Positions 44,818-49,227 of a stretch of DNA of 64,000 nt are shown piece by piece (the first letter of the stretch is position 1; every line of letters starts with the position of its first letter). The notes beneath the pieces were generated by a model, which had not been told where the DNA came from, did not search any database, and saw only the letters and a program-made list of their open reading frames with translations. The translations under genes were made by a program, and so were the position numbers. This DNA is from an uncultured Acidobacteriota bacterium (GTDB lineage: Bacteria > Acidobacteriota > Thermoanaerobaculia > Gp7-AA8): NCBI GenBank assembly GCA_963741955.1, contig CAVUKB010000001.1, positions 449,417 through 513,416 of the forward strand, given 5' to 3'.

Positions 44818-46290
44818 ATGACTGCAGACGTGCACTCCACATCCTCGATCCGCAATCGTCTCTTCATCGGCGGCGAGTTCGCCGATGCCGCGTCGGGGGA
44901 GACGTTCATCTCCACCAACCCGGCAACGGAAGAGAAGATCTGCGACGTCGCGTCCGCCGGACCGGAAGACGTCGATCGGGCGGTGAGGGCCGCGCGAGCG
45001 CAGCTCGAGCCGGGATCCGAGTGGCAGAAGATGAAGCCGCGCGATCGGGCCAAGGTGCTCTGGCGTCTCGCGGATCTGCTGAGCAGCAACGCCGCGGAGA
45101 TCGGGCGCATCGAGACGCTGGACAACGGAAAGCCGATCTTCGAATCGCAGTACGTCGACACCCCCGCCGCCGCGGAATGCCTCTACTACTTCGCCGGCTG
45201 GTCGGGGAAGGTGACCGGCGAGACGATTCCGGTCCAGGAGGGAGCGTTCACGTACACCATGCGCGAGCCGGTGGGCTTGGTCGGCGCGATCACTCCGTGG
45301 AACTTTCCTTTGATGCTCGCGGTGTGGAAGATCGCCCCGGCGCTCGCGTGCGGCAACACCCTGGTGGTGAAGCCGGCGACGAACACCCCTCTCTCCATCC
45401 TGAAGTTCGCGGAGTACGCGAAAGAGGCGGGCCTCCCTGCGGGGGTTCTGAACATCGTTCCGGGGCGAGGGAGCGTGGTCGGGAATGCGATCGTCGACCA
45501 TCCCGGTGTCGATGCGATCGCGTTCACCGGGTCGACCGAGGTGGGACGGCAGCTGATGGCGCGCGCGGCGAAGACGCTGAAGAAGGTCGCCCTGGAGCTC
45601 GGAGGAAAGTCGCCGAACATCGTCTTCGCGGACGCGGACCTGGATGCGGCTGCGAAGGGAGCGCTCAACGCGATCTTCTACGGCAAGGGAGAAGTCTGCG
45701 CCGCGGGGTCACGTCTTCTGGTCGAGGAGGGAGTGCACGACGAGCTCATCGAGCGCGTTCGCGATCGGGCCGCCCGGATGGTTCCCGCGGATCCGCTCCA
45801 CCCCAAGACCCGGATGGGAGCGATCGTCTCGAAGGAACAGATGGAGACGGTGCTCGGCTACATCGAGGCGGGAAAGTCGGAAGGAGCGAAACTGGTCGCC
45901 GGAGGCGAGCGGGCGGACATCGGAACCGGAAAGGGATACTTCATCCACCCGACCATCTTCGACGACGTCGAACCGGGGATGCGCATCGCGCAGGAGGAGA
46001 TCTTCGGGCCGGTGCTCGCAACCGTTCGATTCAGTGACTTCGAGGATGCGGTGGCGAAAGGGAACTCGACCGTCTACGGACTCGCCGCCGCCGTCTGGAC
46101 GCGCGACGTCTCGAAGGCACACCGGATGGCGAAGCTGATCAAGGCCGGGACGGTCTGGGTGAACACGTACAACCTCTACGATCCCGCGCTCCCGTTCGGC
46201 GGATTCAAGGAATCAGGCTTCGGCCGGGACCAGGGTCGCGACGCGCTCGACAAGTACACCCAGACGAAGTCGGTGTGGGTGAGTTTGTAG
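44818..46290 (+). CDS. NAD-dependent aldehyde dehydrogenase
   Basis: PWNFP, FTGSTEVG, LELGGKS, GEVCAAG, EEIFGP, PFGGFKESG. Confidence 0.95.
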   Translation: MTADVHSTSSIRNRLFIGGEFADAASGETFISTNPATEEKICDVASAGPEDVDRAVRAARAQLEPGSEWQKMKPRDRAKVLWRLADLLSSNAAEIGRIETLDNGKPIFESQYVDTPAAAECLYYFAGWSGKVTGETIPVQEGAFTYTMREPVGLVGAITPWNFPLMLAVWKIAPALACGNTLVVKPATNTPLSILKFAEYAKEAGLPAGVLNIVPGRGSVVGNAIVDHPGVDAIAFTGSTEVGRQLMARAAKTLKKVALELGGKSPNIVFADADLDAAAKGALNAIFYGKGEVCAAGSRLLVEEGVHDELIERVRDRAARMVPADPLHPKTRMGAIVSKEQMETVLGYIEAGKSEGAKLVAGGERADIGTGKGYFIHPTIFDDVEPGMRIAQEEIFGPVLATVRFSDFEDAVAKGNSTVYGLAAAVWTRDVSKAHRMAKLIKAGTVWVNTYNLYDPALPFGGFKESGFGRDQGRDALDKYTQTKSVWVSL

Positions 46291-46546: not shown

Positions 46547-46837
46547 ATGGACGACTTCGACCACATCCATCCGGCCGTGCTGAGGCTCAAGACCATCTGC
46601 CGCTGCAACAACATCAAGTACCGGACGATCGAGAAGGCGATCCTCGACGGCGCCCGCACTGTCCGTGAGATCGCGGCCCGAACCACGGCCACCACCGGCC
46701 ACTGCGGGGGCTCGTGCACTCCGGTGGTTCTCGATATGATCTCCAGGCTCGCGCCGGCGGAGCGGAATCCGCCCGCGACGGCGCCGGCGCCGGACGAAGA
46801 CGCGTGGTGGATCCGGAAGCCGCCGGAGGAGAAGTGA
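46547..46837 (+). CDS. BFD-like [2Fe-2S] protein
   Basis: ICRCNNI...AILDGARTV.EI...TGHCGGSC. Confidence 0.82.
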   Translation: MDDFDHIHPAVLRLKTICRCNNIKYRTIEKAILDGARTVREIAARTTATTGHCGGSCTPVVLDMISRLAPAERNPPATAPAPDEDAWWIRKPPEEK

Positions 46838-46839
46838 CG

Positions 46840-47193
46840 ATGGGGAAGAAAGTCGAACTGTGGCTCAAGCCGGGATGAACGTCGTGCCGCAAGGCAGTCG
46901 ATTACCTGGAAGGTAATCCCGCCCTCGACGTGACGCGACACGACCTCGGGAAAGAGCGCCCGCCGCGGGAGCTCCTCGCGCAGCTGGTGCGCGAGTATGG
47001 AATCGATCAGGTTTTCAACCGTCGCAGCACGGCGTTCAGGAAGCTCGATCTCGCCGGCCGGGAGCTGACGGAGAGCGAGGCCATCGACCTGATGCTGGAA
47101 GAACCGAATCTGATCCGTCGTCCCCTGGTCCTGCGCGGGAAGAAGGCGGTCTTCGGCTACTCCCCCGACCAGTACGACGAGGTGCTCGGTTGA
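46840..47193 (+). CDS. ArsC/Spx-family redox protein, probable selenoprotein (UxxC)
   Basis: ATG 46840 with GGAGG RBS; MGKKVELWLKPG-TGA(46876-46878)-TSCRKAVDYL continues in frame into ORF 46930..47193 (FNRRS, PNLIRRPLV, FGY). Confidence 0.82.
46900..46918 (+). promoter_or_regulatory. candidate bacterial SECIS hairpin
   Basis: GATTACCT-GGA-AGGTAATC, perfect 8-bp stem with a G-led loop starting 29 nt after the UGA. Confidence 0.6.
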
Positions 47194-47468
47194 TCATCGG
47201 GGTCACGTTTCCACTCGCGGCGATCGTGGTGATGCTCTGGATTCTCTGGAGTGATTCGATTCGCCCGCGGAAACCTTCCCGGATTCTCTACTTCGTCCGG
47301 GTGGTACTCTATCTCGTCACGTCCGGTGTCCTCCTCTACAACATGATCGAGTACTCTCCGCAGTATTCGGGAGGCGCACGCTCGGTCACCATCTTCGCCG
47401 CCGTGGTCGGCGTCGGCGGAGCGGCGTATTTTCTCCGCCAGGCCCTGCTTCGGCGTCCGAAGATCTGA
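47190..47468 (+). CDS. small three-TM membrane protein
   Basis: Three hydrophobic segments; TTG start overlaps the upstream stop. Confidence 0.65.
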   Translation: MIIGVTFPLAAIVVMLWILWSDSIRPRKPSRILYFVRVVLYLVTSGVLLYNMIEYSPQYSGGARSVTIFAAVVGVGGAAYFLRQALLRRPKI

Positions 47469-47483
47469 CCCTTTTCAGGTTTT

Positions 47484-47499
47484 CGTGATCCAGCTCACA
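47484..47499. promoter_or_regulatory. CRP/FNR-family binding site
   Basis: CGTGA-TCCAGC-TCACA, one mismatch to TGTGA-N6-TCACA. Confidence 0.6.
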
Positions 47500-47532
47500 C
47501 TCGGAGGGCGATCACCGCGGTAAAACCTCTCC

Positions 47533-47601
47533 ACAACGAATTGAAAATATGCGGGACTGCTGGGGAGGGCAACCGGGGCCGTCGCCGGCCCCGGCCTTTT
47601 T
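47533..47601 (+). ncRNA. putative ~70-nt small RNA or leader
   Basis: -10-like TAAAAC at 47521, CRP-like box at class II distance, intrinsic terminator at the 3' end; TSS inferred. Confidence 0.4.
47573..47601 (+). terminator. intrinsic terminator
   Basis: CCGGGGCC-GTCGCC-GGCCCCGG followed by CCTTTTT. Confidence 0.75.
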
Positions 47602-47703
47602 CCTCTCCCCCCCGCGGAATTGGAACCGCTCTCGCACGCGTTCCGGGACGGCAGTAGAATGCCGCCCGGATCATTTTCGATGCGACTCTGCGCCGGTGAT
47701 CAG

Positions 47704-49227
47704 ATGCGCTCGTTTTTCTCTGCGATCATAGTCGTCCCACTCCTCGTGGTGACGGTTGCCCGTGCTGCGTGCGGAGCCACCTACATCGTTCCCGACGACC
47801 GCACGTTCGTCGAACAGGCCGATCTGATCGTACGCGGAACGGTTCTCGTCTCCTCCAGCCGCTTCACGGACGAGGGAGGAATCGTCACCACCACCGAACT
47901 TTCGGTCGACGAGATGCTGAAGGGTCGCCTCTCCGGATCGCGGATCACCATTCAGGAGAGCGGCGGAGTGGCGGGAGGTCTCGCTCTCGTGATTCCGGGA
48001 ACGCCGCGCTTCGCTCCGGGAGAGCGCGTCCTCCTCTTTCTATCCCGCACCCGCGACGGGGTCTGGAGCACGCTCGACCTCGGGCTCGGAAAGTTTCAGT
48101 TCGTTTCGTCCCCCTCGGGGGACCTCCTCGTCCGCACGGGAGGAGACGGCGAGTCGGACGTCTTCGGTTTTGCGTGCGACGGATCTGCCTGGCACGAGCC
48201 GCTCCGCGACGCTTCCGGATTTCTCGAGTTCATCCGTGACGTCGTCGCAGGCCGTCCACCCGCCGAGCCGGGTTACACCCGACCGGCGGCTCCGGACTGC
48301 GGGGACTCCGGCCGCTCCGCTGCGCTTCAGCAGCAGTACCCCCCATCGGCGTACGTCATGGACATCAGCGGCGTCAAGGCTCGCTGGGAGATCTTCACCC
48401 CTCCCACACAGGAAGTGATCTTCCGGACCCGCGGAGCTCAGGAGGGGGAGCCCGACAGTCTCGGAGCGGTCGACCAGGGTCTCGCTGCGTGGACGAACGA
48501 CCCCGACTCGACCGTCCAGTACAGGCGGGAAGGAACCACGAACGCGGTTCAGGCATTCAAGAGGTCCGACGGAATCAATTCCGTTCTCTTCAATGACCCG
48601 AGCGACGAGATCGACGGACGTTTCACCGGTTCCGGGACCCTCGCCACCGGTGGCTTCTGGGCCGACGACCAGAATACTCACATGTACCGCGGCGAGAGGT
48701 TCGCGACGATCCTCGAGGCGGACATGGTGATCCAGAACGGAATCACTCTGAATCAGACCGATTTCGCCGGCGTTCTCGCGCACGAGTTCGGGCACACTCT
48801 GGCCATTCGTCATTCCAACGAGGGAGTTCCGTCGTCGAACTCGGCTCTGATGTACTCCTACCTCACTCCCGGGATGGGTCCGAATCTGCAGCCGTGGGAT
48901 CGCGATGCCGTTTCGACGGTCTACTCCTCCTGCATCCTCCCGGCCGTCACCATGCATCCGGCGTCGATACCGGTCGAGAAGGGTCAGAGCACCACTTTGA
49001 AGGTGGTCGCATCGGGGACTCCGCCGCTGGAGTACCAGTGGTTCAAGACCGACGGCACCACGGTCCAGATGGTCGACGGAAATTCACCCCAGTTCACGAC
49101 CCCCCCTCTCCAGGTGACCACGAGCTACTTCGTTCGCGTATCGAACTCGTGCGGAAGCGTGGACAGCGCCGTCGCCACCGTCTTCATCGTCGGACCCCGC
49201 CACCGCGCCGTCCGCGCACCGCACTGA
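47704..49227 (+). CDS. secreted matrixin-like zinc metalloprotease with Ig-like domain
   Basis: Signal peptide; HEFGHTLAIRH, ALMY Met-turn; Ig domain GTPPLEYQWF...YFVRVSNSCG. Confidence 0.88.
   Translation: MRSFFSAIIVVPLLVVTVARAACGATYIVPDDRTFVEQADLIVRGTVLVSSSRFTDEGGIVTTTELSVDEMLKGRLSGSRITIQESGGVAGGLALVIPGTPRFAPGERVLLFLSRTRDGVWSTLDLGLGKFQFVSSPSGDLLVRTGGDGESDVFGFACDGSAWHEPLRDASGFLEFIRDVVAGRPPAEPGYTRPAAPDCGDSGRSAALQQQYPPSAYVMDISGVKARWEIFTPPTQEVIFRTRGAQEGEPDSLGAVDQGLAAWTNDPDSTVQYRREGTTNAVQAFKRSDGINSVLFNDPSDEIDGRFTGSGTLATGGFWADDQNTHMYRGERFATILEADMVIQNGITLNQTDFAGVLAHEFGHTLAIRHSNEGVPSSNSALMYSYLTPGMGPNLQPWDRDAVSTVYSSCILPAVTMHPASIPVEKGQSTTLKVVASGTPPLEYQWFKTDGTTVQMVDGNSPQFTTPPLQVTTSYFVRVSNSCGSVDSAVATVFIVGPRHRAVRAPH

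Follow-up and report, generated by a model that had tools for sequence, protein, structure and literature searches.

Bacterial selenoproteins related to ArsC, in which selenocysteine (Sec, U) takes the first position of a UxxC motif, have been known since 2006-2008. Zhang et al. 2006 listed 'ArsC-like' selenoproteins (PMC1794560), and the Global Ocean Sampling (GOS) selenoproteome contains 'Arsenate reductase 2, cd03032, UxxC' together with 'Arsenate reductase (ArsC) 1, UxxS' (PMC2398784). An 'Arsenate reductase-like protein, COG1393, UxxC' is listed in a 2022 review (PMC9312934), and a 2026 review ties an 'Arsenate reductase-like protein, UxxC' to the model NF041106 (PMC13188914). Another close described relative is Spx, whose conserved features are the CXXC motif, G52, and the RPI motif; residues 119-131 of Spx form a helix that contacts sigma-A, and its last 28 residues are the ClpXP/YjbH target (PMC8501982). 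Here we describe a gene of the same broad family in an uncultured Acidobacteriota bacterium (Thermoanaerobaculia; Gp7-AA8). It was found in a stretch of 64,000 nt (contig CAVUKB010000001.1 of assembly GCA_963741955.1, positions 449,417 to 513,416, forward strand), referred to below as the window, and all coordinates are counted from its first nucleotide. Comparative sequence analysis indicated that positions 46840-47193 very probably constitute a single 117-residue ArsC/Spx-family gene in which the UGA at codon 13 is decoded as selenocysteine.

The gene resembles 'Arsenate reductase 2' and the ArsC-like families in having an ArsC-family thioredoxin fold with Sec as the first residue of UxxC, and those families were also predicted from Cys/Sec alternation combined with a selenocysteine insertion sequence (SECIS), as was done here (PMC2398784, PMC1794560). 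The initial annotation of the locus had stated that Sec-containing ArsC-like proteins were already on record, and the catalogued UxxC types bear this out (PMC1794560, PMC2398784). The comparison, which was made by description only, also brings out differences. The catalogued entries come from marine metagenomes and Deltaproteobacteria, whereas the present gene belongs to soil Acidobacteriota (Thermoanaerobaculia), has Sec in nearly every member of its clade, and lies in a cassette with genes for a BFD-like protein and a membrane protein. A literature search on selenocysteine, Spx, and ArsC and on the selenoproteomes of Acidobacteria found no paper describing this clade, supplementary tables aside, and the clade may already be catalogued in the supplementary tables of selenoproteome papers. 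The gene is a further member of a known group and does not overturn current knowledge. It falls outside the sole curated selenoprotein model of the family and belongs to a clade-specific cassette.

Reading Frame of the Predicted Selenoprotein Gene

The frame opened by the ATG at 46840 on the plus strand reads MGKKVELWLKPG-TGA-TSCRKAV and, when TGA is translated as U, gives 117 residues (46840..47193, 117 codons plus stop). The predicted product is an ArsC/Spx-family thioredoxin-fold protein with the motif U13-T-S-C16. The in-frame TGA, read as selenocysteine, is codon 13 (46876..46878, plus strand), and it aligns with Cys10 of Spx, whose C-T-S-C-R-K-A corresponds to U-T-S-C-R-K-A here. A Shine-Dalgarno-like GGAGGAG, read directly from the sequence, is located at 46825..46831 on the plus strand, 8 nt 5' of the ATG. 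The mechanical list of open reading frames (ORFs) begins the gene at the GTG at 46930 and gives 87 aa, a form that lacks the first strand, the first helix, and the entire CxxC motif. The initial annotation had set an ATG preceded by a ribosome-binding site at 46840 against this listed start at 46930 and had placed the TGA on the first Cys of a CxxCrKA motif; both starts were found where it had put them, and the position of the TGA was borne out by the alignment with Spx. The terminal stop of the gene is also TGA (47191-47193), and the next gene, which begins with TTG at 47190, overlaps it.

Conservation of the TGA Codon among Relatives

When 41 genomes, the own one and 40 relatives, were searched in six frames, 24 strong matches were obtained: one in the own genome, 21 among 24 same-family genomes, and two in the same order. 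Each of these 24 orthologues carried TGA at the same column, within L-K-P-[S/G/T]-U-T-S-C-R; one of them (L036, from G022) came from a genome marked unpublished, and without it the count is 23 of 23. The orthologues were 113-121 aa in length and shared 42-58% protein identity with the window's protein. In the alignment, both flanks of the TGA were conserved in frame, over the 12 residues before it and in the T-S-C-R-K-A after it. Because the TGA was kept in all 24 orthologues at this level of identity, a sequencing error or a recent nonsense mutation, which the initial annotation had named as ways in which its proposal could fail, is excluded. Three same-family genomes (94-98% complete) gave no match when the window's protein was used as the query.

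A wider scan of genome_contigs, with one genome per species, retained 80 loci, 62 with TGA and 18 with TGT or TGC at the column. The near clade consisted of 61 loci, nearly all titled Thermoanaerobaculia or Acidobacteriota metagenome-assembled genomes (MAGs), and carried TGA in 60 and TGT in one (L072), whereas the 19 distant loci comprised two with TGA and 17 with Cys. The homologues therefore showed TGA/Cys alternation at exactly this column with both flanks conserved, and the outcome that would have spoken against the proposal, in which all close relatives have TGC or TGT, was contradicted by the near clade. Near-fixation of Sec at a ratio of 60 TGA to 1 Cys indicates that selection maintains the use of selenium at this site. 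Among 301 genomes sampled from the phylum, 53 stretches matched, 29 of them with an in-frame TGA, 23 with none, and one with TAA; the position of the TGA was confirmed for nine of the loci so obtained (L023, L030, L032, L041, L053, and L056-L059). A metagenomic homologue with 56% identity (P0003) had Cys at the TGA column.

The sole Cys form of the near clade, L072 (634-699, from a Thermoanaerobaculia MAG), retained an intact SECIS-like hairpin after its TGT codon. Its genome contained selD, with no in-frame stop, and a tRNA-Sec-like gene. Loss of the Sec machinery as the cause of the Cys form was rejected, since both genes are present. L072 looks like a recent replacement of Sec by Cys; a protein-level constraint on the hairpin sequence fits as well.

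Selenocysteine Machinery of the Genome

The own genome (16 contigs, 99.1% complete) contained selA (475 bits), selB (321 bits, the C-terminal part lying in frame with the rest), selD (360 bits), and a tRNA-Sec with anticodon tca (UCA; 69.5 bits), each above its cut-off. The Sec machinery that the initial annotation had implied for the host was thus found in full. In-frame TGA codons occurred in selD, at G-G-U-A-C-K, and in fdhA, which encodes the alpha subunit of formate dehydrogenase. Across the class sample, selA was detected in 40 of the 41 genomes; the single exception has a completeness of 78%, and the 40 include two unpublished genomes. Both selD (L010:1528-1593) and fdhA (L142), located on contig C7, are themselves selenoprotein genes in which hairpins follow the TGA. 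The loops of these hairpins are GGA in selD and GGUCU in fdhA and start approximately 18 nt after the UGA.

Candidate SECIS Hairpin Downstream of the TGA

The published model of the bacterial SECIS (bSECIS) specifies a loop of 3-9 nt, an upper stem of 4-16 bp, a G within the first two loop positions, a distance of 16-37 nt from UGA to loop, and a minimum free energy (MFE) of -7.5 kcal/mol or lower (PMC13188914). The putative bacterial SECIS of the present gene is the hairpin GATTACCT-GGA-AGGTAATC at 46900-46918 on the plus strand. It has an 8-bp stem and the loop GGA (or UGGAA closed by C-G), with the loop G at 46908, 29 nt after the UGA. The perfect hairpin with a G-led loop reported in the initial annotation was therefore recovered at the same place, and its SECIS-like nature was upheld, as the hairpin fits the loop size, stem, loop-G, and spacing rules of the model (PMC13188914) and covaries among relatives. 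The plus strand of the window (64 kb) contained 37 perfect hairpins with a stem of at least 8 bp and a loop of 3-8 nt, and approximately 0.013 such hairpins would be expected by chance in the 22-nt zone. The 19-nt hairpin folded at -7.4 kcal/mol (z -4.19), and none of 200 shuffles was as good; the 60 nt from the UGA folded at -20.6 (z -2.27). No other strong local structure was present in the 16-37-nt zone.

Covariation was assessed with 65 distinct TGA-bearing 66-mers (alignment A5), in which the helix occupies columns 26-32 and 36-42. The helix was paired in 77.4% of cells compared with 66.3% in shuffles, and the covariation score was 0.268 compared with 0.112, with none of 500 shuffles reaching as high a value. 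Changes on both sides were observed at five of the seven pairs; pair 28-40 occurred as G-C (31 sequences), U-A (20), and C-G (2), and pair 27-41 as C-G (23) and U-A (15). The first 24 sequences gave the same picture. At least five of the seven pairs could form in 54 of the 65 distinct sequences, and the loop was GGA in 54 of the 65. Amino-acid changes (Y..K, D..R, and H..E) account for some of this covariation. At the synonymous third position of an Ala codon (column 27), T was found in 9 of 24 rows in which the partner was A and in 1 of 23 rows in which it was G (Fisher p = 0.010, uncorrected for relatedness).

Sec could also be inserted with the help of another or a larger structure, the hairpin at 46900-46918 then being a by-product of the codons for D/Y-L-E-G-R/K, and several observations weigh on that side. 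RNAalifold, run with 24 and with 65 sequences, did not return the 46900-46918 helix and gave only an invariant 3-bp piece of a smaller hairpin closer to the UGA, and 11 of the 65 Sec-bearing sequences formed four or fewer of the seven pairs. The covariation was dominated by two or three haplotypes (D..R, Y..K, and H..E), so relatedness inflates the shuffle test, and a control in which the partner was slid by +2 columns still scored 0.205 against 0.268. The Cys form L072 keeps the hairpin intact, and constraint on the encoded D/Y-L-E-G-R/K residues could accordingly explain part of the hairpin's conservation. Compared with the selD and fdhA hairpins of the genome, this one has its loop 11-12 nt farther from the UGA. 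The MFE of the bare hairpin, -7.4 kcal/mol, falls just short of the model limit of -7.5, the value for the 50 nt from the UGA being -14.4. Against this alternative stand the lack of any other strong local structure in the 16-37-nt zone, the agreement of the hairpin with the published loop, stem, and spacing rules (PMC13188914), the extension of the compensatory changes to a synonymous third position, and the identity of the loop GGA with that of the selD hairpin in the same genome. A different SECIS is therefore unlikely, and the hairpin at 46900-46918 is probably the SECIS of this gene. Together, the TGA/Cys alternation, the Sec machinery, and the covarying hairpin support the 117-aa ArsC/Spx-family selenoprotein proposed in the initial annotation.

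A supporting pattern was seen in six distant Sec forms (L056-L059, L138, and L140), each of which had a different hairpin of 5-7 bp in the same zone; their mean MFE was -12.3 kcal/mol compared with -8.3 kcal/mol in 20 distant Cys forms. These distant Sec forms carry U-T-T-C or U-T-S-C, show 35-42% identity, and come from other families of the phylum. Their hairpins start approximately 16 nt after the UGA and include GCCAGR-loop-YCUGGC, GCAAGA-GGUC-UCUUGC, and AAGCGC-GGGCG-GCGCUU; Cys-form relatives of these proteins had no such hairpin. A scan of 46700-47300 against Rfam, with E values up to 10, returned no SECIS family and one chance match to a snoRNA (13.5 bits). The bacterial SECIS models in Rfam are narrow, and a negative Rfam scan says little.

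Protein Family and Closest Structural Relatives

The read-through product matched Pfam ArsC (PF03960) with an E value of 2.9e-22 and 79.2 bits, against a gathering threshold of 24. The match spanned residues 10-114, indicating that the part 5' of the annotated GTG start is needed. The sole NCBIfam model passed was TIGR01617 (arsC_related, Spx/MgsR), at 85 bits against a cut-off of 75.05, and this was also the best NCBIfam model for all 25 aligned members. The Spx models NF002459 (57.8 bits, cut-off 123), NF009885 (39.5, cut-off 152), and NF009210 (38.8, cut-off 159) were all failed, as were the YffB-type reductase model NF008107 (50.4 bits, cut-off 121) and TIGR00014 (43 bits, cut-off 106.05), the model of the glutaredoxin-coupled arsenate reductase ArsC. 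The protein is filed under the broad ArsC/Spx-related subfamily, outside Spx proper. The model cd03032, cited for 'Arsenate reductase 2', is one that we take to be the Spx subfamily model.

Among solved structures, the best relatives were Spx proteins, with 3l78 at an E value of 3.9e-15 for the single sequence and 8e-24 for the family profile. The YffB structure 1rw1 reached 8.1e-14 with the single sequence and, with the family profile, 9.4e-15, behind Spx at 8e-24. The protein is thus like the YffB/ArsC-family reductases (1rw1, NF008107) in fold and size but unlike them in its score against the reductase model. Arsenate reductase as the default label was rejected, because the ArsC equivalog models scored far below their cut-offs and no ars genes were present among the four neighbouring genes examined. 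At the position of the CxxC redox pair, U13 and C16 should, by analogy, cycle between selenol/thiol and selenylsulfide.

With NF041106, 'ArsC family (seleno)protein', the protein shares its ArsC-related nature, the occurrence of Sec and Cys members, and the UxxC motif. Its score was nevertheless only 32.2 bits against a cut-off of 85, and only 8 of the 25 aligned members matched this model at an E value of 1e-5 or better; it therefore belongs to a different subfamily. Pipelines that use NF041106 would accordingly miss the window's protein. Combined with the shortened database calls described below, this gap in NF041106 means that an entire soil lineage, Thermoanaerobaculia, carries a selenoprotein overlooked by automatic pipelines.

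The similarity to Spx raises the possibility of a genuine Spx-type regulator, which, once its U-x-x-C switch is oxidised, binds the RNA polymerase alpha subunit at its C-terminal domain (alpha-CTD) and alters transcription. The best solved relatives are consistent with such a role, as is the one NCBIfam model passed, whose title is 'Spx/MgsR family RNA polymerase-binding regulatory protein'. The protein is like the Spx proteins of Bacillus subtilis and Streptococcus (1z3e, 3gfk, 3l78, and 7f75) in the length of its core fold and in x-T-S-C-R-K-A, with Sec in place of Cys10. Residues T14, S15, R17, K18, R62, R93, and R94 correspond to Spx T11, S12, R14, K15, R60, R91, and R92, which contact DNA in the Spx activation complex (PMC8501982), and the residue at the G52 column of the window's protein is Gly. 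The positions R94 and P95 do not vary and are followed by L, I, or V (R-R-P-[L/I/V]); the RPI motif is common to the wider ArsC family and hence does not discriminate for Spx.

Other features speak against such a regulator. G52 is essential for binding of alpha-CTD (PMC8501982). Of the 24 Sec orthologues, only five, among them that of the window, carry Gly at the corresponding column; the remaining 19 carry Arg, His, Asn, or Asp. With its last residue at 117, the protein has neither the sigma-A-contacting helix 119-131 nor the ClpXP/YjbH degron. In addition, the Spx-specific NCBIfam models scored far below their cut-offs, Spx K62 is replaced by Pro in the family consensus, and the host belongs to Acidobacteriota, not Bacillota. 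A genuine Spx-type regulator is therefore quite improbable. For this organism, whose protein keeps that Gly and most of the DNA-contacting residues, one can also picture a Sec-bearing Spx-like redox sensor that would bind RNA polymerase and whose switch would be a selenylsulfide rather than a disulfide, with the BFD-like and membrane proteins as its input module; we regard this as a long shot. If true, the protein would be the first selenoprotein whose role is to regulate transcription and not to catalyse a reaction.

Alternative Readings of the TGA

If the TGA were a true stop, the locus would either hold a broken gene (through pseudogenisation, a recent nonsense mutation, or misassembly) or yield a functional 87-aa product from the GTG at 46930. 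The latter is what the standard ORF call gives, and among the 120 relatives listed from the protein collection searched, 118 were likewise called as N-terminally truncated forms of 74-99 aa without the active site, covering 61-82% of the query and named Spx/MgsR regulator or arsenate reductase. These shortened entries began at differing, non-homologous positions just 3' of the motif, which is, as judged from the sequences, the signature of gene callers halting at a Sec codon. A true stop is also difficult to reconcile with TGA at the same column in orthologues of different genera (24 of 24) and throughout nearly all of the near clade, with the in-frame conservation on both of its sides, and with an 87-aa form that would be devoid of CxxC and would lose part of the region matched by Pfam. 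We consider a true stop extremely unlikely.

Read-through with an amino acid other than Sec (Trp or Gly if the code were reassigned, or Cys if a tRNA-Sec-like tRNA supplied it) has in its favour that one source deposited the homologue P0004 with W at the column, the TGA there having been translated by another code, but it can be set aside with hardly any doubt, because TGA serves as an ordinary stop in the selenoprotein gene itself and in the adjoining BFD-like gene, the column is Cys, neither Trp nor Gly, in homologues and in Spx, and the genome has a dedicated selA, selB, selD, and tRNA-Sec (UCA) with TGA at the expected places in selD and fdhA.

Three-Gene Cassette and Proposed Mechanism

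The selenoprotein gene is the middle member of a cassette spanning 46547-47604 with tight junctions, a 2-nt gap and a 4-nt overlap. The upstream gene (46547..46837, plus strand) encodes a BFD-like [2Fe-2S] protein of 96 aa (Pfam PF04324 Fer2_BFD, E value 1.3e-12), and its stop, TGA (46835-46837), lies 2 nt 5' of the selenoprotein start. The downstream gene (47190..47468, plus strand), taken from the ORF list, encodes a small membrane protein of 92 aa with no Pfam family; it begins with TTG and shares 4 nt with the stop end of the selenoprotein gene. A terminator-like hairpin of nine G-C pairs followed by a T-rich tail (47573..47604, plus strand; a consensus match only) likely marks the end of the three-gene unit.

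Of 23 related loci tested with Pfam, 17 had a BFD-like gene as the immediate upstream neighbour, and the two same-order genomes had other neighbours around the selenoprotein gene. With a motif of our own, the BFD-like protein was detected upstream in 57 of the 61 near-clade loci. Four Cys residues of the BFD-like proteins were invariant in 17 aligned sequences. These proteins end in a conserved D-A-W-W-V-R-K-K tail (window 46799-46837, alignment A4), the codons of which share nucleotides with the selenoprotein gene's ribosome-binding region; this tail could be conserved at the protein or the RNA level. On the downstream side, 21 of 22 ORFs from related loci aligned with the 92-aa membrane protein, and a membrane-protein motif was present in 53 of the 61 near-clade loci. 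The nearest Atlas clusters to this protein contained only unnamed Acidobacteriota proteins. Neither the BFD-like nor the membrane-protein motif occurred in any of the 19 distant loci. The gene order suggests that this clade-specific association with a BFD-like protein and a membrane protein forms a dedicated redox module. Near-fixed Sec and the cassette together make this a tractable system in which to ask what Sec gives to a protein of the Spx/ArsC fold.

Based on the established bacterial pathway, SelB with Sec-tRNA(Sec) would bind the hairpin at 46900-46918, the apical loop of which is GGA. Once the ribosome arrives at the UGA, some 22 nt upstream of this stem, SelB would deliver selenocysteine. 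Translation would end at the second TGA (47191-47193), which lacks an element of this kind. As in other members of the family, U13 and C16 are expected to form a selenylsulfide/selenol-thiol couple on the thioredoxin fold. The gene order points to co-transcription, and probably translational coupling, of the selenoprotein gene with those for the BFD-like and membrane proteins. The selenoprotein would then be the redox-active component of a three-protein module specific to the clade, and neither an arsenate reductase nor a true Spx regulator.

The genes flanking the cassette encode an aldehyde dehydrogenase (44818-46290) and a 535-aa protein (47620-49227) with a matrixin-like zinc-protease motif (Peptidase_M10, E value 9.4e-6) and C-terminal Ig-like domains. 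The aldehyde dehydrogenase and the M10-like metalloprotease give no functional hint for the cassette and have no obvious link to it.

Other Hairpins in the Locus

A smaller hairpin, TGCC-GCAA-GGCA, at 46885..46896 on the plus strand folded at -5.0 kcal/mol, and 7 of 200 shuffles were as good. It starts 6 nt after the UGA, and none of its pairs changed on both sides among the 65 sequences. As a SECIS it was rejected, being too near the UGA (the model calls for 16-37 nt) and showing no covariation; it is probably incidental, built from invariant Cys and Ala codons. The initial annotation had noted this second hairpin closer to the TGA, and it is indeed present there, although for the same two reasons it adds no evidence for Sec insertion. 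A second perfect 8-bp hairpin, CTCGCGCAG-CTG-GTGCGCGAG, listed with a 5-nt loop, occurs at 46975-46995, inside the coding sequence and approximately 100 nt after the UGA, beyond the SECIS zone.

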